From positions 19,134,805 to 19,198,804 of the forward strand of contig OZ316894.1 in assembly GCA_973895155.1 (NCBI GenBank): a stretch of DNA of 64,000 nt. The letters run 5' to 3'. Both the position numbers and the translations under genes were made by a program. The stretch's first letter is position 1. Each line of letters opens with the position of its first letter. Source of the stretch: Marsupella aquatica. Lineage: Eukaryota; Plantae; Marchantiophyta. The notes under the pieces were generated by a model. The model was given only the letters and a program-made list of their open reading frames with translations. It was not told the DNA's origin and ran no database searches. Shown here one piece after another: positions 9,801-57,320 of this stretch.

Positions 9801-11437
9801 GTTGTTCCACGCAAATTTAAATGAGTCTGGCAATCATTGCTCGTACACCTACAAAGTTTCCTAAGGTCAAATTGAGTGTGACAGGAGATGACACTAACTA
9901 GTCGAGCTCTCAACCCTTTCTCCTAGAAGTTTTCAACGAATTCACAGTCGACGACCCCGATTGATGAGAAGCCAGTATCTTTAAGTCCGGAGAGCAATGT
10001 GCGGCATGAACGACCTTTCCTGAAATCACTTCGACAGGAAGGCAGAGATAGCCATTCTCAATAATATATGCACAACGCTTATCACGTACTGCTGAACTTT
10101 TAATACGAGATCACCAGCAGTATGTATCATCGAAGACTGTGCAATACTCACTATCGCCATTCCCCTATCATAACCATCACAAATTGCTCTCGCTTTCTCA
10201 TGACCGTCATCAATTGCTATCTGTTTGTCATTAACAAAACAAACTGCAATCTCTCTTTGGTGAAGATCAGAAAGAGCCCAAAGTTTTCCGGACTTGTTAT
10301 ACACTTTTAATTCTCATCCAGGCTGTAGGTTCTGTGGCCAGAAGGCTGCCACGGGCGCTGCATAATGACCAGAGTTTTGGATATGGAATGGCAATCTGAA
10401 ACATATCCTCATGAAAAACAATCGTCGGACTTAACACCATACAGAAAACAGAGTTTACTGTCCAGTTTGAATACCTGACGAAGTGGGATGATCCGCGAAA
10501 GCATTCCGATAAGGATGTCTGTATTCAGGCTCCTCTCATGAGCTTCGTCCAGGACAACAACGGAATATTTCCTCAGCAGGAAGTCTGCCTGCAACAATAT
10601 CATCCATTACATAAATCTTCTTACACTGACTTTTTCAGTAGTTGTACTTGTAGGCACTTATTTGAGTGCGCATGAATACGTACAAACACAGCTGCGAAAC
10701 CCTTAGAAGCATTGCAATAGCCAGAAGATCTAACACAGGAGGCACCATACCTGTAGTTCTCTCAAAAGTATTCCGTCCGTCATGAATTTGATGCAGCTTT
10801 TCTCCCCAATTTTACGATCATGGCGGACTTGGAATCCTACTTCTTGACCTAAACTCACACTCAGCTCATGGGCGACCCTCCGTGCAGTTGCTAGAACGGC
10901 AACCCTCCTGGGTTGGGTCACACCTATGATTCCAGATCGCTCTGGACAATGAGGAGAACCATACCCTGCTTCATATAGAAACTGCAAAACGGCAGATTCA
11001 CTGGGTGAGAATGCTTCCGAGCTAAAGTTCATTACGAAGGGTGTGCGTCCCTCCGGATTTTCTCTCAGTAAGTTGTTATTCATACAAGGGCATTGGCACC
11101 CAACCTGTGGAACCTGGGTGGTCTTGCCACACCCAGTTTCTCCGCACACGATGACAATCGGATTCTCCTGAATTGCCTCCATAATTTCCTGTTCCATCAT
11201 CACAATTGGGAGACTTTCTCGACTCTTTTCCACGTCATCCGGTCTCCGAACATGCACCACATACTTCGGCTTTCTGACTGCAGGCGGCTGTTTGGAAACG
11301 CTCAAAGCCTCTCCCTGTTCCTTAAATTCGCTCTCTAGCTGGGCAACTTTCCCCTTTGCTTTCTTCTTCTTCCTTTGCTTGCGACGTCTCCTCCTTTCCA
11401 TGCCGTCAACACCCACAGAGCTCAGAGCGTTTTCCAT
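6869..11437 (-). CDS. DEAH13: DEAH-box ATP-dependent RNA helicase, DEAH13/DHX37 (Dhr1)-like, 40S ribosome biogenesis
   Basis: Exons inferred from GT-AG junctions: 11437-11105, 10981-10751, 10588-10475, 9798-8560, 8407-6869. Motifs: GETGCGKTT (I), TQPRRVA (Ia), MTDGILLRE, DEAHERS (II), MSAT (III), FLTGQREV, ATNVAETSITI (V), QRAGRAGRTGPGHCYRLYS (VI), followed by HA2/OB-fold-like C-terminus. The acidic insert in RecA2 is typical of Dhr1/DHX37. The start codon is uncertain and upstream exons may exist. Confidence 0.93.
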
Positions 11438-11939
11438 CACAGAAACGTACCCAACCAGCCACTCTCTGCGGCGTACCTCGAAATTAAGGTCACACTCTCC
11501 AACCTCTATTTGCCTGACTCGAATACTTCAGCCATCCAGCACCTTCGTGATACAATCTCATTTCTAAAGGCATTGAGAAACTCCGTAGACTCTTCCGAGA
11601 TGGAAGGCACGAATCCCACACAAGCTCACTCCATCGAAATTCATCGAGGAAAGGCAGGAATCTAGTTGATCCAAAACCTACAGCAACAGCAGGTGGGAAA
11701 TGATAGGTTGGACAATAAGATGCTCGACAAACTGAATTGCAATGAAATTTTGATTGATGGATCCACACATGAAAAGCTCGGGGGAGTCGAGAGGATAATA
11801 ATGCATTACTGTAGTAGTCACCTCAAGTCTTCGGAGTGTGCTTTGAATTATTAGATTAGGGTATAGAGCTGAGCTCAACTCTTTGGTGGGCCTTGTTCAT
11901 CTACCTCCTGTTATTCTGTAGCGTTTCTCTGTCGTCCCC

Positions 11940-14340
11940 TGCGCCATCAGAGCTCCGTCCATCCAGGATGAAGCGGTGGACTGGGGGTTTAGGGTTTAGC
12001 CAGGGTTCCGTCCATCCACCGTCTGTTTACTGTGAAACCGAGTGTGGCCTGTAAAATAACAGAGGGTGTGTACTCGCCACTGTAAAATAACCGAGGGTGT
12101 CCATTTGCTACTGTAAAACCGAGTGCTGTACTCTATATCAAGAGAGGGTGTCGTTTGCTACTGTAGAACCTACTGTTGTACTGTAAAATAACCCAGGGTG
12201 ACCGTTTGCAACTGTAAAACAGAGTGCTGCTCTGGAAAATAACAGAGGGTGTCCGCTTGCTACTGTAAAATGGCTGTGTACTGTGAAATAACTGAGGGTG
12301 TCCGTTTGCAACTGGAGGGTGTCCGCTTGCTACTGTACTGTAAAATCACTGAGGGAGTCTGTTTGCTACTGTAAAACCAAGTGCTGTACTGTAAAATAAC
12401 AGAGGGTGTCTGCTTGCTACTATAAAACGGCTGCTGTACTGTCAAATAACTGAGGGTGTCGGTTTGCTACTGTAAAACCAAGTGCTGTACTGCAATTAAC
12501 AGAGGGTGTCTTTGCACTGTAAAACCGAGTGCTGTACTGTAAAATAACAGAGGGTGTCGGTTGGCTACTGTAAAACCTAGTGCCGCACTGTCAAATAACA
12601 GAGGGTGTCTGTTTGCAACTGCGAAAATGAATGGTATACTGTAAACTATTAGAGTGTCTGCTTGCTATTTAAAACCATTTGCTGTACTGTGTAAAATAAC
12701 AGGGGGTTTCAACCGAGCCTGTTGTCAGTCTGTGACAGAGCTGCCAGGAGTGTTTATGGAGGGCTTTGCTTGCCAAAGTGAAAAATGTCCTGCCATTGTT
12801 CCCCTGCATTGCAAACCTGGCAACGGGCTTTGCTCGCCATAGCCAAAAATGTCCTCACATTATTCCCCTGCGTTGCAAACATGGCAGCCCGGCCCTGCCT
12901 TTCTCCCACTCTGCCCTCACACTCGATTGCCCCCTGCTCCAGACAGGGCTCCATCCATCTGGGATGAAGCCGTGGTTAGGGTTTGGTGCTGTCCGTCCAA
13001 TACCAGTTTGCTACTCTAGAGTGTGTCAACTGAAGTTGTTAGAGCACTAGGGTGTGTCAAAGCACAGCCATAACTCTCAGTTATGGCTCAAGACATAAGA
13101 CGCTTTTACAACCCGGACAAAATCACTATGGGTTACAGAAATACATATCCATAAGGGGGACATGTCCCAAAAAATAAAGCCTTAACACTTTGGTTACGGG
13201 AGAACTTTGACACACCTACTCCCACTGTTTTGCCAAACAGGGTGTCTGGGAGCATTTGTGGCAGGCTTGGCTCCACATTGCAAACAGGGCGCCCGACCCC
13301 ACCTTTTCCCAACTCCACCATGGCACTCTGTTTCCCCCTGCGCCACACTCTGTTTCCCCCTGCGCCAGCCCAAGCTCCGACCATCTGAGCTGAAGCGGTG
13401 GTTGGGGGTTTAGGGTTTAGCTAGGGTTTCATCCAGCCAGTGCCTATTTGGTTGCTATAAAACTGACAATTATACTATAGAATAACAAAGGATGCCAACT
13501 AAATCTGAACCATCTGTCAGTCTGGCAAACAGAGTAGTCTGGAGCATTTATGGTGGGCTTGGCTCACTAAGCCAAAATTGGCCTCCCCTGTTCCTTGCGT
13601 TGCAAACATGGCAAACCTGGCCCTGCCTTTTTCCCACTCTGCCCTAGCACTTGGTTGTCCCCTACACCAGCCATAGCTCTATCTGAACCAGTGGTTGGGG
13701 GTCATGGTTTAGCCAGAGTTCCGTCTACCTAGTGTCAGTTTGCTGCTGTAAAACTGAGTGCTACTATAATGTAACAAAGGGTGCCAACTGAACCTGTTAG
13801 AGCACTCCCCCTGGTTTGCCAACAGAGCTACTGAGAGAGTTGATGGCAGGCTTGAGTTGCCATGGCCAGAAATGGTCTCCCATTGTTCCCCTGCATTGCA
13901 AACACAGCAGCCTGGCCCTGCCATTTGCTCACCAGTCCCTGGCACTCTATGATGCCCTTCTCCAGCCAGAGCTCTTTCCATGAGGGCTAAAGTGGTGGTT
14001 GGGTTTATCCATCCAACGTCCAGTTGCTACTGTAAAACTGAACCTTTTGAAGCACTCCCACCAGCCTGCCAACACAGGGTGGTTGGGAGTGTCATGCCAG
14101 GCTTGGCTTGTCATAGCCAAAAATGGCCTCCCACCATGTCCCTGCATTGCAAGCATGGTGGCCCATTTTCCTAGTCTGCGTTGGCACTCTGTCATCCCCT
14201 ATGCCAGCCAGAGCTCCGTCCAACCGGGGCAATTCGGAGGTTGGGGATTTAGGTTTAGCCAGGGTTTGGTTTATCCTGCACCCATTTGCTGCTGTAAAAC
14301 TGAGTGCTGTACTACAGTGGTGTCATCTCGGTTTGCCCAG
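11940..14340. repeat. Higher-order satellite: ~250-300 bp units with an internally amplified ~50 bp subrepeat and telomere-like motifs
   Basis: The unit start GAGCTC(C/T).TC...G(C/T)GGT.G..GGGTTTAG(GGTTTAG) recurs at ~11950, 12945, 13372, 13675, 13968 and 14210. TTCCCCTGCATTGCAAAC is repeated in the units. From 12025 to 12720 the subunit TTGCTACTGTAAAAC.GAGTGCTGTACTGTAAAATAACAGAGGGTGTC is tandemly repeated more than 10 times. Confidence 0.9.
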
Positions 14341-14943: not shown

Positions 14944-15471
14944 TTATAGCAGAGATGTCCAGTAAACAGTACTTTACCATACACCTAAAATTAGAAAAGG
15001 AAACTTATGAAGTGCATTAAATCACAGCTGCCCCTAAGTTCTTATTATAATGTGCACAGAATGGGCTTGAGCTCCACAAAAGGTGGTGAGTGCTTCACTT
15101 TTTATGTCACAAAATGAGGAGTAGTGAGGGAGTGAATGGGGCTTTTATGGGGGTAAGTGTGGTTTGAGTAATGTTCAGTAGGGTTTAAATGTTTCGATCG
15201 TTCACATTGTTTGCATTTTCATCTACTTGTTCACAGATGATGGTAGAACGCTTTCTGCTGGGTTTTACAATTCTCCTCGATTCTCCAGTGTCCATGCAAT
15301 TCGTTTTGTCGAGTGCCATTTTGTTCGATGGTCTTTCATCTGCTTCTGTAGGTTTTTGGATCGGCAACTCGATTCCTACGATTCGTCCTCGATGAATTTT
15401 CTCAGATGCACCATTGAGCTGAGCCTCTGGAGGATTCCTGCCCTCCATCTCGGAAGAAGTCTACAGAGTTC

Positions 15472-15549
15472 CTCAAAGCATTTCGAAGTGGTCAAATATT
15501 GCGAATGTGCTCAAAGCATTTCGAAGTGGTCAAATATTGCGAATGTGCT
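15472..15549. repeat. Perfect 38-bp tandem duplication upstream of RPC3
   Basis: CTCAAAGCATTTCGAAGTGGTCAAATATTGCGAATGTG at 15472-15509 and 15510-15547. Confidence 0.9.
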
Positions 15550-15799
15550 TGACTGCTGATTGCTGAAATTTGAGAGCAAGTCTTCCATGCAGGCAAATAG
15601 AGTTTGGAGGAACGTGGCAAATAGAGTCTTCCATGCAGGCAAATCGCCGTGATGGACAATGCGTTGAATTTCCAGGGGTTTTGGACGGGCGACAAGTTCG
15701 GCTTAGGAATTTAAATGAAGGTTTCAGGTAAATGGAGAAATCCTTCTTTTCGTGTTGAAAAGAAGCTTTTGCCAATCAATAAAAACCGTAGAGAGATCA

Positions 15800-15868: not shown

Positions 15869-17533
15869 ATGGCGATGCAGCATAGGTGTAAACTTGCCTG
15901 CCACCTGATCAGCACCCACTTCGGCGAATTGGTGGAGAAGGTTTGCAGTTGCTTGATCTACAAAGGTCCGCTAGCTCTTCCGGAAATCGCTCGATATACA
16001 GAACTGAATCCCGGTCAGCTCCGCAACTGCCTCCTTGTTCTGGTTCAACATAATTGTGTTCAGGGCTACAAAGTCGAGCACGAAGCCATCGGACAGGCTG
16101 GTCCGAAGGTATCCACCTCTTACATTGCTATTGTCAACAACATTCTTCACAGGGTGCGATTTCCCAAGTTTCTTGTAACTGTTCGTGATGAAATTGGAGA
16201 CGAGACTGAGTCTTTATTAGAAGGTCTGCTGGAGCATGGGAGGCTGACTTTGGAGCAAGTAATACAAAGGGCTGCTGCACGACAGGGCAAAGCGGAAGCA
16301 GAGGTGGAAACACTCCAGAAGCAAACCTTTGCAGCTCTTGTGCGCTCACACTATATCGAACGCTGTCCTTCATCGGAGCCCAATGTGGCTCCCAAGTCTA
16401 TTGAGCCACCCAAAAAGGTACCACGGGGAACATCAAAGGCTAAAAGCATCAAGGAGGCAGTAAAGCTTCTTGAAAGTGAAGAACGGAGGATTCTCAATGC
16501 TGCGTCTGTACTCGACACAGAGCGGTTTCGGATGCCATCTTCTCTGGAAGAAGTGGGAGAAACAAACTCTGACGAACCCATGACAGAGCCTGTGGGTGCA
16601 GCGGGGCAGAAAAGAAAGCGAGATGCATTGGACATGGATGCAAAGACTATGGCCCTTATTGATGAGAAAGAGGTGTTGTGGCGTGCTAATTACGACGAGC
16701 TCATTCGCAAACTGAGACACCAGGCTTGTGTAGCTCAAGTCAAAGCAAGGATAGATTCTACAGCAGGTGTAGTGCTGGAGGCAATGCTGGAAAGTACGAG
16801 TCAGGAAACTAGGTACAGGCAGCAAACTTCTGTTTCCCTTTCCATGCCCGTAATCATGGAGGCAGTGACAAGAACTCCAGAGGGTCGCACTATGACAATG
16901 GAACGCATTCGTGGGGCTCTGCATCAGATGTCCTCGGAATCCACAGGTTTCTTGAGCAAGTTTGGTGATGGTGGGAGCAGCTATGTCATCAATATCCACA
17001 AAATCGTTGAACTTGCACGACGAAATGAGGTTGAGGGTATAGTGCTACAACGATTTGGACGCGAATGTTGTCGTATTTACAGACTTCTTATGATGAAGGG
17101 TCAAATGGAACAAAAGCAGATTGCAGGAATGGCCATGGTGCAGCTTAAAAGTGCCAGGGAGCTACTGTACAGGTTATTGAAGGAGCAGTATGTTATAGTT
17201 CAGGAGGTTGCAAAGACAGCGGAGCATTCTGCACAAAAATCATTTTACTTGTGGAATATAAACTGGCAAACTGTACAAGACCTAGTGCTAGACGACATGT
17301 ATCATGCTGCAGCAAACTTGGGGCAACGCCTTGCACAGGAGCTGGAACAAGAACAAGAGGTATTGGAACTTCTAAAACAAATCCAAGCTGCCAAGGCAGC
17401 TGGGGCAGAGAGTCATGTTACTCTGACTCAACGCCAACATGAGCAAGTGAAGCGGATCCGAGGTGTAGCTTCTGTGCTTGAATCTTCTTTGCTGCACCTT
17501 GACGATGCCATCCTGTTGTTTCATGATTTCTAG
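15869..17533 (+). CDS. RPC3: DNA-directed RNA polymerase III subunit RPC3 (RPC82/POLR3C family), intronless
   Basis: 554-aa uninterrupted ORF with N-terminal HFGELVEKVCSCL..KG.L...LRNCLLVLVQHNCV winged helix, RVRFPKF, LLEHGRLT, WRANYD, RFGRECCRIYRLL and KSFYLWNIN, all characteristic of RPC3. Confidence 0.92.
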   Translation: MAMQHRCKLACHLISTHFGELVEKVCSCLIYKGPLALPEIARYTELNPGQLRNCLLVLVQHNCVQGYKVEHEAIGQAGPKVSTSYIAIVNNILHRVRFPKFLVTVRDEIGDETESLLEGLLEHGRLTLEQVIQRAAARQGKAEAEVETLQKQTFAALVRSHYIERCPSSEPNVAPKSIEPPKKVPRGTSKAKSIKEAVKLLESEERRILNAASVLDTERFRMPSSLEEVGETNSDEPMTEPVGAAGQKRKRDALDMDAKTMALIDEKEVLWRANYDELIRKLRHQACVAQVKARIDSTAGVVLEAMLESTSQETRYRQQTSVSLSMPVIMEAVTRTPEGRTMTMERIRGALHQMSSESTGFLSKFGDGGSSYVINIHKIVELARRNEVEGIVLQRFGRECCRIYRLLMMKGQMEQKQIAGMAMVQLKSARELLYRLLKEQYVIVQEVAKTAEHSAQKSFYLWNINWQTVQDLVLDDMYHAAANLGQRLAQELEQEQEVLELLKQIQAAKAAGAESHVTLTQRQHEQVKRIRGVASVLESSLLHLDDAILLFHDF

Positions 17534-23599: not shown

Positions 23600-25194
23600 T
23601 GTTTTCGTAAGCTTGCTTGTGTGTACATTTACATGGTGGAGTTCATAAGTGGGGAAGGAAATGGGGAGCAGCAAGTGTCAAGCAGACCGTATAACCTGCA
23701 TACCAAAACATAAAATGAGGCGTGCCTCTTTTTCTTTCTTCGTTGTTTGTTCTTGTTTTTAGGGGGAGGGGGAAGCGTGCCTCTTATTCTTTGGTATTTA
23801 AATGTCACGGGTCTTTCTTCCTTACACTTCTGGAGAAAGGAGAGTTGTTGTAGAATTATGATGGACAATTTGAACTTCACCTAGCACAGTTTTAATTTAC
23901 TTTTTCTGTGACTTCCTGTGGACAGTTTTCAGAACAGCAACCCTGACTAACTATTATCATTTTGCCTTGAAAGCATTGTTCACTGACAAATAAAACTCCT
24001 TAACAAAGAACAGATCACACACAAAACAGGGGACCACCCGGCCCAGCCATTGAGGGGACCAAGTGGGAACACTCAACATAACGGCTAGTCATACAAAATT
24101 GATCATGCCCGTCATATGGGCCTGCTTCAATATCATACAATAAGGGGGCTTTACAAGATCTCAGAGGTCGGTCTGTTTTTCTAAGTCCAAATGTGGCAAC
24201 GGCCTATACTTCACTGTAAATGAACTTGGGGGCACCATCTGGCAAAGCCATTCCTGATTATAATCACCTGCTAGTAGGCACTTTTTTGCTGATGTTTTTG
24301 TTTTATCAATACTTAGGCCACCTCTAAAGAACCGCTTGGGTCCATTTCTATTCAGGATCTTGCTTTTATTTTCTCCAGACCTGACACATCTTGCCTCCAG
24401 CATTTCAAGTCTAGTATATGCAATAAATCTCATGTTTGCAATCTAAATTTGCAATGGGTGAACAGTGACAATATGTGGATCTGAGTTCTGGTAAAGCCCC
24501 CTTAAGTAGACACGACTTTATAAACAGAAAGCCTTGCTCTTCTGCACAACTCACGATCAATCTTCTTTAATACTAACCCGAGTACCTGATCTTTCAACAA
24601 TAATAGAGGTGAGGATAAAAAAGTGCCTCTTTGACAACATAGAGCCATAAGGTCACAGAGCTATATATGTGGACTTCAACTCCAATGCGGCTCAGATTGA
24701 TCCCGCCTCTCAAGTTCAAGCTCAAAGTCTCCACATTGCTGCTGTTCTCCCGGCTCTTCTACAAAGATTGAGATTTTTCTTCAGTCAAAATTGTTTGCAT
24801 CATAAAGTTAACATGTTGACCCTTGATGACATCAGCTGACCAAAGCTTCTTCAAGTAGTTGAAGAAGAGCTGGCCATTTCACCATAGCCTCCACAACAGC
24901 TGACCTTTTCAGAAGCGGCCTCACTAATCCAATGGCTCCCTCCACAGGGCGGGCCCAGGCAGCTGCATTCCATCCACTCTCTTCACAGGCGCCCTATTTT
25001 CAAAGCGGCACAATTTCCACATAGTTACTCCCCTCCCCTCCCCTTCCCCCTCCCCCATCCCTTTTTTTCAACCCCACCCAAAATTCAATTACCACCCTCT
25101 AAGTCACAGTTTACAGGCTTCAGTCTATACCGTAGCCCTTTAAAGTAGTTCTGCATTGCACTTCAATAGTAAGATCTTGTTGCCTCAACCCTGG

Positions 25195-25375
25195 ACAGAA
25201 ATATATATCAATGTGCCCAAGGGCAAAAAACGCCGAACCGGGAGACATGATCCCAATGGCAAGGCAACCCAATGAAGGGAAGGAACGAGGGGAAAGGGCC
25301 CCAAGAAAAACAAGTCAAGGGGACCCCAAGCAAAACCCAACAAAGAAGCCAGAGCCGAAAACAGGATTGTCATGC
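25195..25375. repeat. Dispersed repeat, probably a retroposon 3' tail on the minus strand; homolog at ~37525-37690
   Basis: TATATCAATGTGCCCAAGGGCAAAAAACGCCGAACCGGGAGACATGATCCCAATGGCAAGGCAACCCAATGAAGG aligns by eye with TATATCACACCGCCACAAAGCAAAAGGCGCTTAACCCTGAGATACAATCCCAAAGGCAGGAGACCCAATAAAGG at 37528. Confidence 0.55.
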
Positions 25376-26146
25376 CGAGGGACAGTGCCGCTTGTGCACA
25401 TCGGCATGTCCCTCGCATGCCCGCTAGGTATGGTTAGGGCTAGTGTACTACTTGAGTTAGTGTCATGTTCTTGTAGCGTGTCTGGGCTGTTCTTGAAGCA
25501 AAAGGGGTTTGTTAGTGTGACGCCTGGACCCGGTCCTACTTAGGGCATGTTTTTCTTTGTCGTTCTTCAGTTCTTCTTGAATCGTTGTGAGACAGTTTTT
25601 CAGAGGCTGCTCGTTGGTTCCGTACACGGAATTCACACAGTGATTCGTTAGATGCTCCCGGCCGATCTTGGCATCTCGCCGGTTTTCGATTCGATTTCAG
25701 TACGTTTGTTTCTATCACGCCTTTTATTCAAGAAGAACTCTGTCGCCGGGTTAGCGGTGAAGGGAAGAAGATCGAAGACGCTGTGCTTCTCAATTGCTCG
25801 AGACAGTTGACGCTTTTCCGCTGATGCCGGTGCAATTTCTATGGAAAAACGTTGAGCGATGGGGTGGAAGTTATGGCTTTTGTGTATACACTTAAGTATA
25901 TACACTTAAGTCAAACAGGCCCCCCCCCTCACTTTTTTCCTTCCACTTTGCTTTCAGGGTTTTCCATTTCCCGGCCACGGCTGCCATCCTGCATCGGCTG
26001 CCGCGCGACAACTTCCGCATTGCCTCGGCCACCGTGCGACTGCTTCTCGACTACATAGGGCCTCGCGCCCATTTTCTTTTCGCCCTTTGCTGCCATTTTT
26101 GCCTTTGCCTCGCCCATTTTCCTTCCTTCTTTTCCTTACCGTTATC

Positions 26147-26563
26147 AGCAATTAAAGCACTTAGATGAAGGGGGAGCGAGTGTGCAAGGAGAGGGCACGA
26201 GGCCCTATGCTGCAATTTAAGGAGGGGAGGGGAGCGAGTGTGCCAGGATAGGGCACGAGCCCCTATGCTGCATTAAAGGGGGAGGGGGAGTACCTACGAC
26301 TCCCTTCTCGGGAGTCCTCCTGCAGGGCACGAAGCCCAGATAGCAGCATTAAAGAGGGGGGAGACAGAGCCGAGGCAGCGCAAGGAGTGGGCACAAGGCC
26401 CTATGAAGAATTAAAGGGGAGAGGGGGAGTTCACGTCGACTCCCCTCGGGAGTCCTGCCAGGCACAAGGCACCCAGCACATTTAAGAGGGGAGGGGGAGC
26501 TCGTAGCCCCACCTCTTCAGGAGCTCATAAGGAGGGGGGTGCGAAGCCCTATGCACAGGGCTC
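26147..26563 (+). repeat. Six-unit repeat/variable-spacer array in the retroelement 5' leader
   Basis: Each 55-80 bp unit is TTAA(A)-G-rich(GGGGAGGGGGA)-variable middle-GG(G)CAC(G/A)A(A/G)GCCC-TATGC-like. The hairpin motif occurs at ~26193, 26251, 26325, 26389, 26461 and 26537. Confidence 0.85.
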
Positions 26564-29500
26564 ATTTCTTTTTCTTCGCCTCACTCTTCCCGTTTTCTTT
26601 TCGCCTTTTTCGGCTTGTCTCGCTTTTTCGCCGCGCGACGATCGACCTGTTTCCATCTCTCGGGTCCACATCGGGCTGATGTGTATACACTTCAGATTCT
26701 GTGTCCCACTTGGCCCGGTTTTCTTTTCCCGCTGACGCGCACCTCTTTGGTTTCCCTTTTCCTGCCAGTTTTTGGGTCCACATAGGGGCCCGATGTATAC
26801 ACTTAAGGGGGGGGGCCACTTCTAGTTTCTTTTCCCGGATTTCTTTATTGCCGCCAACATTAAGCCTTTCCCGAGTTTTTAAGGGGTTTTCCTTTGCCGA
26901 CGATTTTTCTTTGTGACGGTTTTTCTGTGTGTTTACACATTTGACACATTGCTACCTTGTACCGTTTGTCTCCTTTGTGGGTTTTATTTCCTAGCCTTGG
27001 GGCTGCCATTCCTTTTTCTTGTCAATTTCTTTCCCATTGGCACCCCGGGTGAGCATGCAGCATGTCAGCCGACGAGCCGAGAGGTAGCAGCTCATCGCCA
27101 CCGACACCCCGGTACCACTTACAGAGTGATCCATGACCGTTGGTGCCAATTTCATTGGAGTCTCGGCAATTTCGACGACGTCAGCAGACAGCAGCAGCAC
27201 CCACACCACGCAACCCTTCTGCTACATTTGGCGGTCGCTTCACCTCTACCCCGAAGCTTGCTATCACTTCTTTGCCTTTTTCTCCTTCTGCATCAGTGAT
27301 TGTTCCAGCTTCACCGACATACAGCATGGATGCCAGTCACTCATCTGGCCGCATTGAGCGCTTCAGCAGGCGGCCAGGCACTGTCTCTTTGCGTGAGTTC
27401 AAATCCACTTTCTACATTGTCGTTTACGAATTGGAGTTGAAGTATGGCAGCAATTTCACAAATGCTTTTGCATTTAAGCAGCTAGCCAGGTATGTGCACC
27501 ACGAGGCTTTGGATGTGTATGAGTAGCATTCTCAACGGCTGCTTGCTGTCACACAATTGCCTAACCCTGCCTATGCCACTGCAATTGCGGCTGCCTCACA
27601 ACTGGCATTACAGAATGCCATTGCAGCCCATGTTGCTGCTCCTGCCACTTCCCCTCCTACTCTAGTTCCCACCACTGCACCAGTTACTCCCACTGTCTTG
27701 GCACAGGCTACATCAGGCATTTCTCCCACCATTGATTCCCCTGCCTTTGCTGATCCAGTGGCTGAGTTTTTCCAGGTTCTTGAATTGGAATTCCCAATCA
27801 AGAGTGCTGACAAAATCATGCAGTTGGCCACCTTTGTGAGGCAGCGCGATGAAACATTGAAGATGCTATATCGCCGGCTTCTCAAGCTGAAGGAAGACAC
27901 CCAGAGCATCACTGACCTGGAAGCTGCTCATCGCTATCTTCGCGCATTGGAGGGCACACCAGCTCTCCATTCGCAAGTGTTGCAGCAAGTATTCTCAGAG
28001 TTTGGAGACAGCTACACCCTGCTCAATGTCTATGATACTGCTGAGAAACTTGAGTTGGCCCATGCACATTATGAGGCCAGTATTGCGCGTCCACCGCGAT
28101 CCAGGTACCAGGCTGCTGCCCCTACACTGCCCACCCCTTCTTGTGTGCCACAGTATGGTTCCAAGACCAAGCCAGCACATGCTGCTTTCATGCTGCCATC
28201 TTGCAACTACTGTGGTAACCCCAATCACAAGGCTAATGAATGTGATATTGTTGCTGAGGACCTGTCTTGTGATTTTTGCGGGAAAGTGGGCCACTTGGAG
28301 GCAGTTTGTTTTGCCAAATTCCCCGAGAGGAAGCAGCTACGACAGCAGGCCACTCATCCTACTCCTGCTTCCACTCCCCCACCAGCTAGGAAGGCTCCTA
28401 CTACATCAATTGCTCCTCCTTCCAGTGGCAAAGCATCCAATGCTAACAAATTGCCCAAGCAGCCACAGAAGCAACCAGCTCAGAAGGAGGCTCACAACGC
28501 ACAGGCAACTCAACTCCAGTCTCTGACTCATGAGGTTGAGTCCTTACATGCCCAACTTGCCAACATCAAAGGCAAGTCCACTACCTCTGCTGGTCCTTCT
28601 CAACCGGCTGGTCACGTGCAACCCATCCCTGGCCCAGGCACCACTGACAGTTCAGCACCTCTACCCCGCTCTTTCTATGGCTTGCCATTTGATGCTCATA
28701 TGGGTGAGTGTGTGCTGTCCTCTGCTACACAGCCTGGCCTTGTCGCAGAATTTTCAGATTCATTCTGCCCTTCCTATTTTGCTTACCAGCAGGCCAGTGC
28801 TGCCTCCCGTATTGCTCCCACACGCCGCATTGTACAGGCTGATGGTCTTGCTGCTGGTCCTATGACTAGAGCCGGGGGAGCTCGGGCTGTCATGCCCCAA
28901 TCTTTTCAGCCACTCACACTTGCTGAAGAGCGCACCTTGTTGGCGAGGGGGGAGGGAGCTGCAGCTACATCCATTCCACCACCAAGTGCTGTTGACATTT
29001 CACAGGGAGCTGTTTTTCCTAAGCTGCTTGAGCATTTCACCTCCGGTATGGCACAAAGGATTCTTACCACTCCACTTTTCAGTTGCCATGATTTACAGCT
29101 GGATGCTAGAGCTGTCATCAGAGCGCTAGAGGGCTCACTGCATTCTTCATCAGCCCCTATGACACCGGTTTTGGAGGTCCAATCTCATGTAAATACTGGA
29201 CCTTCTTCTTCTCCATTGCATGCTTCCACTGGTTTGGCTATCCCAGTACCGATTTCCAGTGGTAGAGATGACAGTATTGCTGCAGATTGTGTGACCAGAG
29301 CTACACTTGATTCTGGTCATGCTGCTCCATCTTTCCTGGCTATGCTGTTGAGTGAGAAGACTGTGGACACTAACTCCCTTCACAAGGTACCTCATCATTT
29401 GCCAAAGGTGGTGCCTAGTGACAGGACTTTAGTTTCCACCACCATTGCCATTGTTGACAACAGGAATTCAGCAGTCAAGTTGGAGGGTCACACTCCTCAG

Positions 29501-30178
29501 GAGGTCATGCTAGACACAGGCGCTCAACCAGTAATCTTGGGCATTCAGTTTGCCAAGGAGATGGGACTACTGACTGATCATTTACAGCAATCCAGGTGGC
29601 ACATTCGGACTACTAGTGGCACTGTGGAGGATGTGTTGGGTGAGAGTTCTACTTTACTCACTCTCACTTTTAATGGAGGTACAGATCAAGAATTGCATTT
29701 CCCAGTCCGATGTTTGGTTACCAATGCCACTACGTATGATGTGCTCATTGGCCAGGAGGCTTTGTTCCCACCAAGTTTTACCATTGACAACTGGCATGAG
29801 CATGCATACTACAGAGTTGATTGGCATACGGATGACTCACACTTGGGCTACATTCCACTTGATTTACATGGTGCCCATACCCCTATGGCTCACCACTGTG
29901 TGTTGAAAGCAGTGCACACAGCTACCTATGTCAACCACCCATTGCAGGATTGGATTGAGGAGGATGATGATGAGGTGGCTGCTGCACATGCTGCTACACG
30001 TATAGCAGCACTTTCCAGCAACGTGGATCATCAACCAGAGGTGGTACAACGGCTCCAAGCAGCCCATGGACCTTTAGTGGCTGCATTGCGCAAATTTGAG
30101 GACCTTGGGCAGCACAATGGACAACCAATAGCCCCAATCTTGAGCGCACCAGTTACATGGACTCCTCCTTCAGATGGC

Positions 30179-31120
30179 CTTACATTGCTTGAGCTTTTTG
30201 GTGGCATTTCTACAGGCCTGGAAGCTCTCCTACAGTCTGGCATGGTGGTGAAGCAGTACATCTATGTGGATATTGATCCAGGTGCAAGGCAAGTGTCTGA
30301 ATCTCGTCTGCTGGAATTTTCAGAGCGATTTCCCCAGCAGTTTCCACATAGTGTATGGAAGTCTGCATTTTCTTTCTTCCCTCCAGATATCCAGCTTGTC
30401 CAGCACCGGCACTTAACCCTTCTTGGCTCCCTTGATTTGATCATAGCTGGTTGGGAATGCCAAGGGTTTTCAGCTGCTGGTCACGGTGCTGGACTGCATG
30501 ATTCTCGTTCTGGCCTTTTCACAGCATTGGTTCAGATTCTCACCTGGGCTCAATCCCTTTATCCTGCTGTTGGTTATATCATTGAGAATACTCCATCTCA
30601 GTTTGACCAGCGTCCACAGGTCAAAGAGGATTTCAGTGTGGTCCAGCACTACTTGGGACCACCCCTTCTCATTGATGCAGTGCACTGTGGTTCTTATGCA
30701 CATCGTCTTCGTAACTTTTGGACTAACCTTGCACCACCTTCCTTGTTGGAGTTGGCTCTTCACCACACATCCAGGGACACTAACCTTACAGTGGACCAGA
30801 TTTTGGATCCTGACAGTTCTTGCCAACCAGTTACACGGCAAGAGCCAGCACCTTGGTATCCAGCCAATACCATTGGACAACCCCGTGCTGCTTGGCCTAC
30901 ATTTGTGTCCTTTCCAGGTGCACATGCTTTTCAGGGTGATGGTCCTGGTCTGGTTTATCGACATTCTACCAGTACATGGGATGAACCTAGTCCTGAGGAG
31001 AGAGAACGGGCTATGGGCTTCCAACCCGGTACTACAGGTCACACCAAAATCACCAGGCTGGCCAGGAATGCTTTACTTGGCAGGGTAATGGATCTCAATG
31101 CTCTCACTTGGCTTCTGGTC
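30179..31120 (+). other. DNMT3-like C5 cytosine DNA methyltransferase domain embedded between protease and RT
   Basis: Motif I LELFGGISTG (DNMT3A LSLFDGIATG); II YIYVDID; IV DLIIAGWECQGFS (Cys codon 30458); GLHDSRSGLF; VI YIIENT; VIII IDA...AHRLRNFWTNL (DNMT3A IDA...AHRARYFWGNL); IX EERERAMGF; X TRLARNALLGR (DNMT3A SRLARQRLLGR). Motifs are in canonical, non-permuted order. Confidence 0.93.
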
Positions 31121-34100
31121 ACTTGCATCCTTTTTCAGATGTACATTCCTCCAGTATTAGGAGCTCCAGCCTTACCACTCCACAGTGCTGCTGCATGGCA
31201 TCCAGACCAGGTGCACTTACCTCTGTCCAACACTCACCACTTCAGTCCAAGTGTTGGGGGGGAGGAGGTCCCTTGTAATGCGGCTGACATTATTTCTGAG
31301 TTTCATGGTGTGGACCACTTCAGATCAGCAGGTACAACAGGCCTTGGAGAGGCCTCATCACCTTATCAGCAGCATGCTAGCAGCTTGGACAGTGGAGAGG
31401 CTGGCACTTCTGGCTCTTCAAGCACAAGTACATCAGGTCCTGTTCCTAGTGTTGCCAACTACACATTTATCATGGGCAACCACCTAAGTAAAAGACAGAA
31501 GGACCAGCTGTTGAATTTGCTCCTCAAGCATGAGAACGTGTTTGCTTTCTCTATGAAGGACTTGGGTAAGTGCAAGACTATGCAGTTCTCCATTGAGTTG
31601 GCTGATGAAACACCTATCTTCAGGCGGAGACACCGTTTGAGTAAGCATGAGTGGCAGCTGGTGGATGAGAGGTGCCAAGAGCTTTATGAAGCTGGTCTTA
31701 TTCAGCCATCTACATCAGATTTTGCGGCAGCTACAGTGATGCCAGCAAAGAAGGATTCCAGTGGATTGTGGACAGAGAAGCGCATGTGTGGGGACTACAG
31801 GCCATTGAACCTGGTCACAGCCCAGGACAGGTACCCCATGCCGCGGCCAGAGGAGCTATTTGACAGCATTGGAGACTCAGACATCTTCACTCTTGTGGAT
31901 CTAAGGCAAGGCTTCAACCAGATTTTGCTGCTTGCAAAGGACCGCAAGAAAATAGCTTTCCATGGTAGTAACCAACTATGGGAGTGGTTGGTGATGCCAT
32001 TTGGCTTGAAGAATGCGCCCATATTCTTTCAAAGAGTCATGGACCAGGTTCTTCAAGGTGCTGAGTTTCTGAAATGCTACATTGATGATGTGTTGGTCCA
32101 CAGCAAAGGATTTGACCAGCATCTACTTGACCTTGAGGAGCTATTCATAAGGCTTAAGAAGGTGAACCTAAAGATACACCCCAAGAAGTGTGAATTTGCT
32201 GTCAGATCAGTAGTATATCTTGGGCATCGCATTCTTCCAAATGGAACCATGGCTCACTGGGCCAAGGTGGTATCCATCTTGGAAATGCCCACTCCTACCG
32301 ATGTTCACACTTTGAGGAGTTTTATTGGGTTGTGCAATTACTACCGGATCTACATCAAAGATTTCAGTACCATTGCACACCCATTGTATGCTTTGTTGAA
32401 AAAGAATGTGACTTGGACATGGAGTACAGATGTTGAGGCAGCATTTGCCACTTTGAAGGAGAAGCTATCAGAATACCCGGTGCTGAGAAGACCTGATTTC
32501 AACAAGGTCTTTGTGCTACACACAGATTGGAGTGCCCTTGGGATTGGTGCCATTCTAGGCCAGCATGGTGAGGAAGGTAAAGAGTACGTCATTGCCTATG
32601 CATCCAGGAGCAACAATCAGGCAGAGAGTCATTATTCTTCTTATGAGGGTGAATGCCTTGCTGTTGTGTGGGCTGTCATATATTACAGGCCCTACCTCTA
32701 TGGGACCAGGTTTGTTCTCTACACCGACCACCAGCCCTTGAAGTGGTTGATGACCAACGACAAGCTTACTGGCAAGCTTGCTCGTTGGGCACTCATACTC
32801 CAAGAGTATGATTTTGAGGTAATTCATAGGCTTGGTGTGACACATCAAAATGCTGACACTATGTCCCGCAGCCCTTTGATTGCCTCTGATGATCCCTCAG
32901 ATGCACGGCAGGATTTTGACCAGGTTTCCATCCTGCCTACATTTCATGCATCTACCTATCTTGCTTTGCTGCCATGCTACATTGTTGACCAACCTGTGGT
33001 GGACATATGGGAGGACAGCGACACTCTGAGATTTCTGCAGGATGGGGAGTAACCCACCCATGTTACTGCTGCCCAGAGAGACCGAATTCAACAAAGGTCC
33101 AAGCGCTACTTGTGGAAGGGAGATCATCTTGTGCGCTGCTTGCCAGACAGGGAAGTGGTGGTTCCACCCATTCATGAGAGGGTTGGCCTTATCCGTAAGG
33201 TACATTCTGAGCTTGGTCATTTTGGTGTTAAGAGGACTTATAGCCTCTTGGTCCCCCATTATCATTGGAGAGGCATGCATGGCCAGGTTCGAGATGTTAT
33301 TGCCCGGTGTGAGCAGTGTGATAGGGTAAGGACTTCTTTCGCATCTCGGCAACCCACACTTCATCCACTCCCTATTCAGGGCATGTTTTATCGTTGGTCA
33401 TGTGATTTGGCTGGAGAATTACCCCTCACATCTCGGGGTAATCTCTACATCATGATCATGATAGAGCATTTCTCCAAGTGGATAGAACTTGTGGCATTGC
33501 CGGATAAGACCTCCCGTAGCACCAGCCAGACATTCTTGCAACAAGTTCTCAGCCGCTTTGGAGCTTGTGCAGAATGTCTCACTGACCAGGGCTCAGAGTT
33601 TAGAGGAGAGTTCCAGGAGCTGCTTGATCAGGCTCTCATTGATCATCGCCGGACATCACAAGATCACCCACAGGCAGATGGCTTGGCAGAGCGCATGGTT
33701 CAGACATGCAAGAAGGGCCTTCGGAAGATCTGCCTCACCAAAAACAAGGAGGATTGGGACCTGGCCTTACCCTACATTGCCATGGGGTATAGGATGTCCA
33801 GACATGCATCACTGTCTAACTTTTCTCCCTACTTCTTGTTGTTTGGTCGTCACCCAGTTCCACCTTCTGCTATTGCTTCTCACATGCTTCAGGTGGTGGA
33901 CTTGGATTCAACTGTGACTTGGTCTGATGTGATCTCTGAGAGGGCTGCCCTATTCAGGAGGGTTATGCCCATGGCCATGGAGAATTTGGCCATTGCACAG
34001 CACAGGGACACACTGCGTTATGCACACACACGAGGGGGCACTTTTCAGCCCAAGGTCAGGAAGTTTGAAGTGGGAGATTTTGTGTACTTGCAGTGGCAAG

Positions 34101-34297
34101 CTAACGACACCCTGGACACCTCTACCAGTCGCACTATTCTCAAGGTCAAAGCTATTCGACCGTCTGGAGTGCTAGAGTTACAAGGGGCAGATGGGCGCAC
34201 AATTGCTGACAATGCCAAGAATTGCACCCCTTGTCATCTGCCTAACTTGGATCCCACCATTGTGACTTCTACTTGGATTCCACCTGTGGACTACCCT

Positions 34298-34432
34298 TGC
34301 AAAGTGTGTTTGCGAATTGATGATGCTGACCAGATGCTGCTGTGTGACAATTGCAATGGAGGGTACCATCTTTTCTGCCTTCGGCCTGAACTTACCCAGG
34401 TGCCAGAAGGGTTATGGTTTTGCCCTTCTTGT
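34298..34432 (+). other. PHD finger (C4HC3) at the integrase C-terminus
   Basis: CKVC-x11-CDNC-x4-H-x2-C-x14-CPSC with the typical LLCD, P.L..VP.G.W.C signature. Confidence 0.93.
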
Positions 34433-37400
34433 GCTCCACATGCTATCTGACTTTTCTTCAGCCCTCCTTTTGGCTGTGGTCTGGGGGGGATACAGAGGTT
34501 TACACCTCCACTACGTACATACCACCTCAGTTGCTTTTTCTTGGCACTTGTGAATGTGATTGGACTTTTTCTATGCATGTTGGTTGCTAGCAGCTTGCAC
34601 ATATGCATTGCCGGTGACTTGTATGTTTTTGATACACTATGGCTACGATACTATATGTCACGACAGGATGGCACCAAGGCAATAAGGCGAACCTACAAGC
34701 GAGAAACCAGACAAAAATGATCAGAGGCCAAAAGTGGTGGACACGTGTCAGGACGGGAGTGGGGCCGGCCGCATGTGCGGCCACCAAACCCGGAGGAGGC
34801 CCGGGGGCACGAGGTCACTCCCGGCGAGTGACCTCCCAACGGTGAGGCCCACCCGCCAGCATTAAAGCCCCCTGCCCTGCGGGAAGCCCTCCAAGAAAGG
34901 GGGGTGCACACGCGCGGTCCCGCACCCAAACCCCCCGCGCCTCCTCCCGTCACCCTCCGCCTCCGCCTTGCCTCCGCCTCGGATGGAGTTGAGTAGTCTT
35001 CAAAAAGGAACCTTGGTATAGAGTTGCTTGTTAAGATTTTACAAGAGTGCACACATCATGTCCTTGGTATTTTCAGCTTGTTGACTTTACTTGTAACCAC
35101 TCACATAAAAGTTTTAAAGAAAGACTACGCTCAACTATTACTAGTATTTTGCACAACATTCTCAGGAAGCAGTTGTCAAATATCGTACAACCCATGATTT
35201 GCACCAACCCCGAGTTGATTACAGTTGACTTGAAGCTCACAGTGGTCATTTAGAGACTTCAAGTCCTACAGATCTTAATTAATTGAACTCTGATAAACTG
35301 GAATTAAGCTTGAGATTAACTTTTCTCATATAATGTACTTTTTCCTCCGTGGTCCTTGTGTATTTTTCTTTTGATTTCCTTTGTTTTACCCTTTTATTGG
35401 GTTTATTGCCTTTGGGATTATGTCACCCGGGTATGGCTCCTTAGTTCTTCAATTGGCACAAGCACCAGGCTCAATATCAATTCATTGCCCATATGTTACA
35501 TCATAAGTAAACATGATTTTGTTGTGCCAAAGGACTTGTATCAGAGCAATCCACACATATTTCCCTTCTGTCAACCAGGAAGTTCAGGCCAGAAGGAAAG
35601 TATATTAAAGCCTGTTCAACAATTCAATGGCCTTTCAAAGTCTGAGACACGCAGGCTATTGTTTCAGCGCCTCCACCCCCCCTGAGATTGCCAGATCTAG
35701 CAAGTCCTGGAAATTCAGGGCTACAGTCCAAACTAAGGCAACAATTGAGAAACCTTGCCCCAAGGACTAGCTCAAGCATGCCCTAGGCAAAGGCTGGGAG
35801 GGGGGAGGAGAACACTCTGCCAGACTTCTTAAGGAAACATGACATGTAGTAAGCACTCGTTGTAATGCAGGTCCACAAGTCTTGATCTATAAGCACATGT
35901 GCAGCAAGAATAAAATACTGCTTGATATCTTTGAAAATGGAAATGACAGTCAGAAGTCAAATGAGAAGACCAAAGAGCGAACAGATCCTTGGGTCCCAGA
36001 AGGGTTGTCAACCCTTACTTTGGCTGAAAGTTTTAATGACCTAGAGTCTAGCACATGTTTTCACCACCAAGTCTTGGATGAGTTATTTTCACTAGCCTGA
36101 CCACCCATTCTTTGAACATAAATTGCGGGAAAAAGCACAACGTGAAAAAAAAAGATTCATTTGCTTGTTGGCAGTAAGGTCTACTCTAGACAGTAGGCCA
36201 TGACCTCACTCCTGTTTGGAAATTTCTGTTATAGATATCCCACATGTTGACTAGTTGTTAGAGCATCTTTGTGCTTTAGTATATAGTCTATTGTGTTAGG
36301 TGCAGGCTCCCAGAAAGACACTCCAAGAGGACACTTATCCATCTTATGCACTATGTTACAAGTGCGCAGGATATCATTTATTCTTTTCTCCATATATTTG
36401 TGTGCTGCATTACCCTATAAGTGCATTGTAAATTGCTTCTGCACTTCCTGATATGTGTACATGTAATTTCATGCACAATTTCATGCACTTATATAATTTT
36501 CTGCTGCAATTATCAATAAATGCATCTTATGTATATGCAGATAAATGCATGTGTAATCTTATAATCTAAATGAGGGTACATGCTTATTGAGGGTCTACTC
36601 ATGCAAAGAGTATTTTTTGTTGCCTTTGCAGCTTAGTTAGGAAATTAGGTGACAACGTGGTTGGCTTGCACTTACCTGCATAATACACTTATAGATGCTG
36701 CACTTATGCATGTTAGATTGTAGTTACACGCAACGAGGAACAATCATAGGACTTCCCTCGTCTACAACACAACACGTACAAACATAGGAAAACGAGCCCA
36801 GAGAAAACACCAGGAATCATCGCTCTACTTTTGGGATATTGTTCACAAAAATTAATGGCTCAATTACTGATTTGCTTGTCCCCTCGGTTGCATGCATACT
36901 CAAATCTTTCTCGATGATCAGCTGTACTACCATAGAGTACAAGCTGACTGACTTTAGTCAAGAAAAAGTAAATCAAGGTCCCAACCAGAGTCAACCCAGG
37001 CCCACACCAAGCAAAATCGGAGGCAATTAGCAAATGGAATGATTTGAGTATCTTGACTTGGTGATGTAACACAAAAGCTACTTTATTTTACTACTTGATG
37101 AAGGCTTTTAGGAGGGTACCTGCTACATAGGTGCCATAATACCATTAGGGGTGGTCGAAGGTGGTCCATAGGAACCAATATTGTTTTATACATATAGAAA
37201 GTAGCTAAGATGGTGACTCCTTCCTTGCCCTAGGAAGTAGTTCTCTATTACATGCTTGACAGATTTGAATGAACCTTCATATTTTCCGTGATCAAAGGAG
37301 GACTATTAGATCTAGCTAAAGTTTACGACTTCAGTAAGGATTTAGGCCGAAGAATTGAAAATATCTCAAAACTTTTCTTTGTACATTTTGGAAGAGGCTT

Positions 37401-39561
37401 TTCAAGGTAAAAAAATGCAGAGATCGTTATGGCCACAAACTAAGTGCATCCAACTTTCATTCCTAAATGTTTAGAATAGTATTCCATAAAAAAATTCAGG
37501 GAAATGTCTAGAGCAACCTGCATGACTGTATATCACACCGCCACAAAGCAAAAGGCGCTTAACCCTGAGATACAATCCCAAAGGCAGGAGACCCAATAAA
37601 GGAGAGGCAACAAGGGAAATCCCCAGGGAGATCAACAAGCCAAAAAGCCGGAGAGTACTCAGCAGAAGTCTCCTCACCACAAGAACCACAAATGAAAAAG
37701 TAGAGGCAGGAATACCCTAGTTTCTATTATGTCTTCATAAAACATCAGATTTTTTGGGGTAAGGATTGAACTTGAGTAGTACTATATGTTTTCTTTCTTT
37801 AAAGGGAAAACTGCCTTAGAGTAAGCTATACAAGTGGTTTGCAGGCAGGGAAAAGCCCTGGCTTATACTTTTGTAACTTCATATTATTCCTACAACTACC
37901 CACAAGCATCTAAAGTATGGGGCAAAACACATGTGACCCACCTTGGCATAGAACCCATATTATATGCCAAAGCAAATCTAGAACAAAATTGTGGGCGGGG
38001 TTTGAAGTTGAGACCTGCTGGTCAAAGGTCACCCCTGGCCACCTGAGCTGGCCACTAGGCACCACTCATGTGGTTAGTACTGCATATCTTTCTTTTATTG
38101 TCTTATGGAAAATTTAGTGTTAAGTGCTTTTATTGTTAGTAAGAGCATTTTATGTGAGGACACTTTCCAAGACAAACAATAGAGGTCGTTGCAAGCATTT
38201 TGTAGCCAGAATGTGATTGTGATAATTTAGTATTTGGGTTACACTAAATCAGCCCCATCAAATCACAAGGCCACCTCACATGATTTGATGGGGCAGGGGT
38301 CATCAACAAGACAATTCTGGATCCCAAACAAGTATTTGAGTGTTGAATTGAATGCTCTTCCAGACTCCTCATCCTCCTCCTATGACATTATAAGGTCTGA
38401 TATATATATATATGTCTTTGAGACCCAAAGGCTTCTGCTACTAAAAGTTCTACACGCCACTCTAATAGACCAAAAAGCGAGAAATCTTGATGTCTACTGA
38501 TAGAATTACTACATTTCCAGATCTAAAACCAAGGGAGAACCAAAAAAAGGAGAGAACTGAGTATTCAGGTTTTGGATGGGGTTGTAGATGTGCAGGGCGT
38601 CCCAAACCCGGGGGCTGGGTTCTTAACGCCAGGCGGCGTTAACCACAGGTTCTGGGAAATCCTGTAACTCATATATGTTTTGTCATTCTGGATCTGGTAT
38701 GTCATGGGCTTTTCTGACATTTTGATGTATCACTCAAGACAAATGAAAGGACAAAGGTTACTTTCTGGTTTTGGAAGCAGCATAGACAGAGACTAAATCA
38801 GTGGCAATGTTGTCGGACACCAGAAGGCTTGATTTCTGTGCCCTGGAAAATATGTGGAGCCTCCACTTGGCGACTATTGCTCATCCTCAAATGTCTACAG
38901 TAGACCATTATCTATCTTTTCAATTTTGAAAGACAATTTTTAATAAGAGGAAAGTGCTCGGGAGTTTCACCCGTGCAACTGCCTAGATTAAGTGCACACG
39001 AATAAAGTGACAACTGCTTTGTGGAGATTTTCGAAACCAACTAAACCTACTGTTACAGTAGCACTTTAACTACACCCTTCACCCCAACTAGTGTTAGTAT
39101 CGAATTAATGTGAGTGGGAAATTAGCGCTAATAAGATATGAGGGCAATAGGGGTTTTTACACTAGTTGAATCATGCTAGCGCCAAGAATTTCCATGCTGA
39201 ACCTGAAGCAGCCACCTTCTTTCCATGTAAATGAACCAATTGCGTAAAATTCATGATTACTGATATTGAGTTACCACTAATCCATCAATGTGACCAATAT
39301 TTCAGTGAAATTAGTGTAACACTAATTGCAGTGAACAGTTCTCTTTTCTAGACAAAAAGTTAACAGCTGGAAGGCATGATTGTGTATTTCACTTACTAGC
39401 CTGGATGCCTGAGCTTTGCTCTTAAACAGATAGTGATAACCAACAAGATTACCAACCATGTCCGTTTTCAATTTCAATTCATCCCAACTGGCCTGTGCCC
39501 TCAAAGTCACCATCTAGAGGCTTCTCAGAATGTTGGTTGATATTGCACTAGATAGATTGAC

Positions 39562-57000: not shown

Positions 57001-57023
57001 GAATAGAACCTCCCGGGCCCGCA

Positions 57024-57320
57024 CTCGGGGGTCTCACTATATGGGGACCTCCCCATCACCTGCGACGTTTTTAGGCCTCGGACCCCCTAAAATGTAAGAA
57101 TTTTTTTTTAGTTTTTAACCCCTATAAAGTTGGAATATTCTTGGAATATTCTCAAAATTGGATTAAAAAGACCCTAATGTTCTTATCAGTCTCAAAATTG
57201 AATTTAAAAGACCCTATTGTTCTTCTACAAAAATTCTTAAGTCTTTCCTTAGAACCAATAAAATGACCCTATCCTTCGTCGCACGTGATATACCATTTTT
57301 GTGGAAGTGAAACCCCCGAG
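57024..57320. mobile_element. MITE, 297 bp, near-identical inverted copy of 55475-55770, 8-bp TSD
   Basis: TIRs CTCGGGGGTCTCACT / AGTGAAACCCCCGAG. Perfect TSD GGCCCGCA at 57016-57023 and 57321-57328. Confidence 0.95.

Follow-up and report, generated by a model that had tools for sequence, protein, structure and literature searches.

What is the repeat array at positions 26147–26563 of the window (the whole 64,000-nt stretch of Marsupella aquatica DNA analysed here), and does it do anything for the retroelement that carries it? A preliminary description had suggested a structured RNA, a G-quadruplex array, a guide source acting with the element's own methyltransferase or a modular promoter. 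Our verdict is that the array is real and mostly ordinary. It is likely to be a degenerate tandem repeat in the leader of a decayed Gypsy-Dnmt3 element, one that arose through successive rounds of local duplication. Any role that it has is likely no more than that of a loosely constrained spacer or cis-region, as opposed to a guide or a fixed RNA fold.

The assignment of the array to the leader of a methyltransferase-carrying retroelement is borne out by the mapped termini, target duplication and protein domains. The carrier is 9.3 kb long (25368–34665), has TG...CA ends and is bounded on both sides by the 4-bp target duplication GGAT. Its coding order is gag–protease–Dnmt3-like–RT–RNase H–integrase–PHD (Pfam: protease, C5 methylase, RT, RNase H, integrase and PHD), and we class it as Gypsy-Dnmt3 because a Dnmt3-like domain lies inside a Gypsy Pol with RT, RNase H and a DDE integrase. 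The features of the carrier are:

25364–25367, + strand: left target-site duplication GGAT, identical to the 4 nt after the right end
25368–25700, + strand: 5′ terminal repeat A, starting TGTCATG, right limit approximate, aligned with relative L005
27062–34450, + strand: single-frame gag–protease–DNMT–RT–RNase H–integrase–PHD coding region, interrupted in frame by stops at 27134, 27524 and 33050
30185–31110, + strand: Dnmt3-like C5 methyltransferase domain (PF00145), between protease and RT
34483–34489, + strand: G-run resembling a polypurine tract, directly 5′ of repeat B, aligned with relative L010
34490–34665, + strand: 3′ terminal repeat B, single copy, ending CACGACA, set by the mapped termini and duplication
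34666–34669, + strand: right target-site duplication GGAT, matching the left copy

This copy, with its three in-frame stops, is broken and decayed; the putative start codon at 27062 is placed by likeness to relatives. The alignment of repeat A to the L005 5′ end begins at the first base of A (score 35; shuffles ≤33.5), and A is ∼290–320 nt long in relatives. The polypurine-like G-run aligns with L010 (score 48; shuffles ≤34), and many relatives have a GGATACA motif at this position. An ordinary LTR pair was rejected, as the 5′ and 3′ ends of the element share no direct repeat. No second copy of A or B was found 3′ of the element, which has the layout A–coding–B only, with intact ends. It is inserted into another repeat (25210–25363 and 34670–35055), with related pieces at 4519–4740, 35336–35437 and 37529–37720 and a strong hairpin (34811–34835) in the right-hand part of the host repeat.

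In the PDB the methylase has 15 matches, every one of them DNMT3A (best E 2e-5). The commonest variants among the best 80 of 256 related loci retain both the catalytic Cys and the ENT motif. The putative motif IV reads WEC rather than the usual PC, both in the window and in the commonest variants of the 80 loci; algal-like homologues have WPC, PPC, PEC or WEC. The integrase–PHD region is 86% identical to a Calypogeia fissa protein and 51–56% identical to Klebsormidium nitens proteins.

These relatives come from a scan of metagenome contigs that gave 256 loci, from which the best 80 were kept (51–72% protein identity; many represent one insertion present in several assemblies). Their elements start with TGTCATG and end with CA(C/T)GACA. 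Eleven relatives have both a 5′ end and a PHD finger; with two that lack a 3′ end left out, a perfect 4-bp target duplication is found in six of nine (two of them sharing one site), two match at three of four positions and one is mismatched. Self-alignment of 21 long loci identified the layout A–coding–B–A–B in L010, L033, L063 and L073. Among the 41 loci whose sequence continues for 800 nt or more beyond the PHD finger, pattern matching placed a B–A junction in 17, scored 18 as B only (two of which are B–A–B by self-alignment) and left six without a B end; B-only ends are common (16–18 of 41). The junction consists of both element ends joined by 2 nt and resembles a circle junction. L033 (5535–15204, B–A–B) and L047 (536–9666, B only) have a common insertion site and target duplication, and their contrast reflects either recombination between B copies, analogous to solo-LTR formation, or assembly collapse. 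We infer that the window copy lost its A–B segment through recombination between B copies, as supported by the insertion site that L033 and L047 share. The carrier thus combines integrase-type TG...CA ends and a 4-bp target duplication with DIRS-like split repeats, and we regard it as more interesting than the array itself.

The array lies between repeat A (25368) and gag (27062), at nt 780–1195 of the leader. The six units described previously are present (26152–26554):

26152–26216, + strand: unit 1, middle type a, interrupted head
26217–26272, + strand: unit 2, middle type a
26273–26348, + strand: unit 3, middle type b, 7-bp stem at 26298–26316
26349–26410, + strand: unit 4, middle type a, the copy of unit 2 in a duplicated dimer
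26411–26481, + strand: unit 5, middle type b, stem at 26438–26454, broken tail hairpin
26482–26554, + strand: unit 6, middle type c, terminal 6-bp fold-back hairpin at 26545–26562

The period is 58, the units are 56–76 nt long and mean column identity is 58%. At up to three mismatches, the 17-mer of the tail has five matches in the 64-kb window, all within 26054–26553, against 0.34 expected by chance and at most two in 100 shuffles. The units are less uniform than first thought. The head is not constant, with 14 nt separating TTAA from the G-tract in unit 1; four of six units have an intact GGGC...GCCC hairpin, unit 6 has one with a G-U pair and that of unit 5 is broken; and after the hairpin only three of the six continue with TATGC (four with TATG). 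The three stems reported in the middles are indeed in the sequence (26298–26316, 26438–26454 and 26497–26526). A coding role was rejected, as units of 56, 76, 62 and 71 nt do not keep the reading frame and only short ORFs cross the array; a search for tRNA genes found none.

The variable middles are neither unique nor independent of one another. Middles 1 and 2 are homologous, as are 3 and 5 (p = 0.002 each), with 1 and 4 weakly so (p = 0.028); no homology is seen in the remaining 12 of the 15 pairs. Classed by middle type, the units read a-a-b-a-b-c. Units 2–3 align over their full length with units 4–5 (score 107; shuffles ≤36.5; 82% ungapped identity), making the latter a duplicated dimer, and the earlier statement that the layout is not explained by slippage is wrong or at least unsupported. 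The recurrence of units 2–3 as 4–5 means that duplication explains the middles; the order is that expected after monomer duplication followed by dimer duplication.

This removes the basis for the proposal that the middles guide the element's own methyltransferase in a CRISPR-like manner. That proposal drew on the constant–variable–constant appearance of the units, the antisense repeat upstream and the Dnmt3-like domain encoded by the element. CRISPR-like arrays have unique, unrelated spacers between near-identical, evenly spaced repeats, but here the middles fall into two duplicated classes and the repeats vary in length and sequence, with the tail of unit 5 broken. The middles have no match elsewhere in the 64-kb window or in the 80 distant loci, and the array is missing from relatives that encode the same DNMT. 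A likeness between unit 3 and flanking DNA at 34800–34870, which share CAGCATTAAAG, is not above shuffles. We consider a guide array highly improbable; the dimer duplication largely refutes it, and a targeting role with the self-encoded methyltransferase is unsupported.

Two antisense copies of the tail were described in the leader and both are present. A second family of leader repeats surrounds them:

25877–25910, strand not assigned: copies of a second leader motif, GTGTATACACTTAAG, with further copies at 26676–26695 and 26793–26807
26054–26070, − strand: antisense tail copy, complementary to unit 1 at 16/17 positions, with a pyrimidine block after it
26781–26792, − strand: shorter antisense tail copy, 11/12 to unit 2, within a second repeat pair (26653–26695 and 26765–26807)

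The upstream copy is beyond chance; a match as close occurs in 1 of 200 shuffles of the remaining leader. It is also closer than in any of the relatives compared, with one mismatch in a centre-versus-rest test compared with two to four in 18 relatives, while a distant inverted 16-mer pair is found in nine of 18 relative leaders, low-complexity pairs not being filtered. All seven window matches of GTGTATACACTTAAG lie within 25877–26807, in both orientations (0.12 expected), and a pyrimidine block is repeated on either side of the array (26068–26113 and 26589–26634; score 41.5; 1 of 200 shuffles). The second motif and the repeated block together suggest that two-way local copying is habitual in this leader. 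MITE-like ends around 25880–26820 were rejected, the motifs common to both being not collinear.

The composition of the array is odd for its family. It is 57–69% purine between flanks of 22–39%, its CpG o/e is 0.40 compared with 0.92–1.06 in the flanks and 0.84–1.37 in the corresponding leader centres of relatives, and its G4Hunter peaks reach 1.5–1.6 where the family comparison gives ≤1.4. Could the array then have been captured from another element, or have arisen where it stands by inversion of pyrimidine-rich leader repeats? The sharp purine edges, the low CpG, the direct pyrimidine repeats at the flanks and the fold-back hairpin at the right edge are all consistent with such an event, and the copies of the motif on the native strand would then be the antisense ones. 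At the edges of the array neither a target duplication nor terminal repeats could be found, however, and the distance from the 5′ end of the element to the gag marker, 1959 nt, is close to the 1210–1939 nt of most relatives. There is also no other copy in the 64-kb window or the 80 loci, and we judge capture or inversion to be very unlikely. Absence of the array from distant relatives does not imply a foreign origin, as this zone cannot be aligned even between close members of the family.

A more serious alternative is an RNA module conserved in structure, in which the antisense copy pairs with a unit tail and switches the leader between folds, affecting dimerization, packaging or translation. 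The beyond-chance antisense copy speaks for it, being predicted to pair with unit 4 (0.87–0.99) or, in the centroid, with unit 1, but the predicted partner shifts with the window that is folded. The 26040–26800 region folds with z −3.1 (0 of 20 shuffles), a value that is probably inflated because the purine block faces pyrimidine flanks, an arrangement that shuffling would destroy; scans of this leader with 180-nt pieces give only z −2.3 to +1.6. For the array alone z is −2.1 (2 of 100 shuffles as good), and for single units it is −1.6 to +0.5. The 7-bp stem is identical in units 3 and 5, with all 14 stem bases unchanged while the loop was shortened (chance 0.07). Folded in context, only two of the five tail hairpins and one of the three stems in the middles are predicted to form. 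For the GAGCTC stem in unit 6 the probability is 0.00; this stem, though present as sequence, lies outside the predicted fold.

Covariation argues against conservation of these stems. Run on the array's own six to seven units, which are paralogous and give low power, the consensus fold of six units has four pairs and no compensatory change. Over seven copies, none of the four tail pairs shows one, and the covariation score was reached by 434 of 500 shuffles. The Rfam search gave six matches, all far below the gathering score. Folding in relatives points the other way, their leader centres folding better than coding sequence (p = 0.0015, from non-independent windows). Weighing these results, we find the structured-RNA reading of the preliminary description unsupported and an RNA module of this kind unlikely.

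The suggestion of a G-quadruplex array fares no better: the canonical motif (four G3+ runs with loops of up to 7 or 12 nt) is absent from 25301–27100. Of 29 such G4Hunter regions across the window, the leader accounts for four, with peaks of 1.5–1.6. For plant LTR elements, G4 motifs have reportedly been published already (PMC3902901).

A DNA-level role is also conceivable, with the array serving as a modular promoter or enhancer 3′ of repeat A whose units would each supply a TATA-like TTAAA together with a GA-rich tract and a GGGC..GCCC box, in either orientation. The motifs do occur in both orientations, and GGGTCCAC at 26662 and 26775 is taken by us to resemble a TCP-type site and counted in favour. 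CpG is abundant in the leader outside the array (25368–27060; o/e ∼1) and in the leader centres of relatives, whereas coding sequence is CpG-poor (0.23–0.37), in an element that encodes a cytosine methyltransferase of its own. Repeat arrays in LTR cis-regions have been described as well (PMC4728375). Against this, the array begins ∼450 nt past repeat A, the relatives' counterpart of A carries a TATA-like box and the relatives retain no such motif in the zone. A promoter or enhancer function seems to us rather unlikely.

A further comparison is with the same leader zone in relatives. The preliminary description had proposed looking for the array in other copies of the DNMT element, and it is absent from all 80 distant loci at 51–72% protein identity: blastn of 24500–27600 matched gag only, the exact tail pattern occurs in 0 of 80 and a unit profile reached a best E of 2.9. 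Viral contigs gave 14 single pattern matches, about the chance level by a rough estimate, and no DNMT relatives. A 5′ end could be assigned in 22 loci, and tandem repeats were found in 22 of these 22 leaders (TRF, score 40). With four near-duplicates dropped, 18 leaders remained. The fraction of the leader centre covered by repeated 12-mers is 0.54 in the window and 0.20–0.59 in 17 of the 18 relatives, the exception being L063 (0.03), compared with 0.00–0.17 in the first 550 nt of the leader. In three diverged pairs of relatives, the leader centre is 42–71% identical with many gaps, while coding sequence is ∼92% and repeat A ∼82–93% identical; a fourth, near-identical pair is 96–100% identical throughout. 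The leader zone of relatives is thus repeat-rich, fold-prone and hypervariable, and its sequence is unrelated to that of the array. For a 300-nt piece of the leader centre, z is −1.7 in the window; the relatives span −0.7 to −8.9, and 10 of the 18 fold more strongly than the window piece. For 180-nt windows of the relatives, median z is −1.7 in leader centres and −0.5 in coding sequence (Mann–Whitney on 48 and 54 windows that are not independent of one another), and this better folding may reflect selection on structure.

Two further observations concern these leaders. At nt ∼500–520, immediately ahead of the variable zone, 16 of 17 relative leaders retain an AG/GT-like site; a short way 5′ of gag, TTTTGTAG is present in many. 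A conserved AG that would partner the AG/GT-like site before gag was not found in relatives; the variable zone could be a 5′ UTR intron.

Because relatives are equally repetitive at the same spot with unrelated sequence, an ordinary fast-changing zone is likely. The reading that we prefer, and hold to be probable, is that the array is the lineage-specific fill of a leader repeat zone with fast turnover, having at most a loosely constrained role in cis. The array has three properties of hypervariable internal repeat zones of Ty3/gypsy elements, namely a non-coding internal location, tandem duplication and a position that is common while the sequence is family-specific. Its history can be pictured in a few steps. 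A head–middle–tail monomer would have been copied first, one copy would then have gained a hairpin middle and the a-b dimer would have been duplicated afterwards. The short inverted copies may have arisen by template switching, most likely during reverse transcription. By analogy with Sireviruses, the zone may tune transcription and attract host small RNAs, with its exact sequence presumably not under selection. Counting against this lineage-specific-fill reading are the closeness and predicted pairing of the antisense copy, the unchanged stems of units 3 and 5, the odd composition of the array and the better folding of relatives' leader centres than of their coding sequence.

A bolder extension is that split-repeat Gypsy-Dnmt3 elements keep a self-complementary repeat zone in mid-leader in which the fold is what counts, the sequence being exchanged from one lineage to the next. 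Here the antisense copy would pair alternately with several tails, either as an RNA switch between packaging and translation or as a hairpin source of small RNAs working with the element's own methyltransferase. We regard this as quite unlikely.

Comparable repeat zones are known in other elements. Tat-lineage Ty3/gypsy elements such as Ogre and Retand have hypervariable, family-specific tandem repeats in their UTRs (PMC7004042, PMC11963269), and for the Ogre arrays an origin during reverse transcription has been hypothesized (PMC7004042). As far as these sources describe them, they are similar to the window array in being short, non-coding and internal to a Gypsy element, with family-specific sequence and variable unit length and number; the portions of both papers available to us credit them to recombination or faulty strand transfer, with no established role. 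They are described as lying mostly between pol and the 3′ LTR, whereas the window array is in the 5′ leader, upstream of gag, and so is not a Tat/Ogre/Retand 3′ UTR array in the strict sense. Compared with those arrays as described, it is more degenerate and has antisense copies, and its carrier is not Tat by structure, having a Dnmt3-like domain, a PHD finger and split repeats.

A second parallel comes from Sirevirus LTRs, whose palindrome region is reported to retain its position and fold but not its sequence (PMC4728375). From the available account, that region too consists of GC-rich, hairpin-prone repeats near the 5′ end, constant in position and differing in sequence among families and members. 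It differs in belonging to Ty1/copia elements, in lying within the LTR upstream of the start site and in being a demonstrated siRNA hotspot, whereas the zone in the window is internal to the leader.

For the carrier, the closest described system is KnitGypsy-Dnmt3 of Klebsormidium nitens, which has DIRS-like repeats in the order A–coding–B–A–B together with Gypsy domains (PMC5890265). On that description, both have a Dnmt3-like domain in a Gypsy Pol, and the A–coding–B–A–B layout recurs in relatives of the carrier. The carrier differs in its land-plant host, its A–coding–B only layout and its three stops. It also has a PHD finger, a term with 0 occurrences in the main text of PMC5890265, and that article, in the parts accessible to us, does not describe a leader array. 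PHD-bearing Gypsy elements are known in Chlamydomonas according to a preprint (bioRxiv 10.1101/2022.06.16.496473), and a preprint from 2026 refers to Gypsy-DNMT3 of 'streptophytes' (10.64898/2026.05.21.726589). A partial, title-level literature search found nothing on land-plant Gypsy-Dnmt3 elements or their leaders.

The rest of the window contains two divergent genes with long uninterrupted ORFs, encoding a DHX37-like DEAH helicase (6869–11440, − strand) and RPC82 (15869–17533, + strand), the latter 93% identical to the protein of Calypogeia fissa, 78% to that of Marchantia paleacea and 59% to that of Sphagnum fallax. Together with the 86% integrase–PHD identity to C. fissa, these values make a leafy-liverwort host likely. 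Between them lie a 51/101-nt tandem array (12049–12707), a dispersed repeat of 250–400 nt containing GGGTTTAGGG and an inverted similarity (11497–11628 and 15420–15609). A 251-aa ORF for a VQ-motif protein occupies 46888–47643 (+ strand). Inverted repeats of ∼300 nt (92–98%) that are 1.3 kb apart at 55473–57322, with a related end at 61122–61210, likely represent a non-autonomous DNA transposon.

Taken singly, the array matters little, as fast-changing repeat zones in retrotransposon UTRs are already known. What the locus adds is that the carrier family, with its Dnmt3-like domain and PHD finger, integrase, 4-bp duplication and DIRS-like split repeats, extends to liverworts, and that the leader centre in this family is repeat-rich, CpG-rich and fold-prone across lineages in spite of having no common sequence. 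If the zone is functional, it would provide a testable case of position and fold being kept without sequence, in an element that carries its own methyltransferase.
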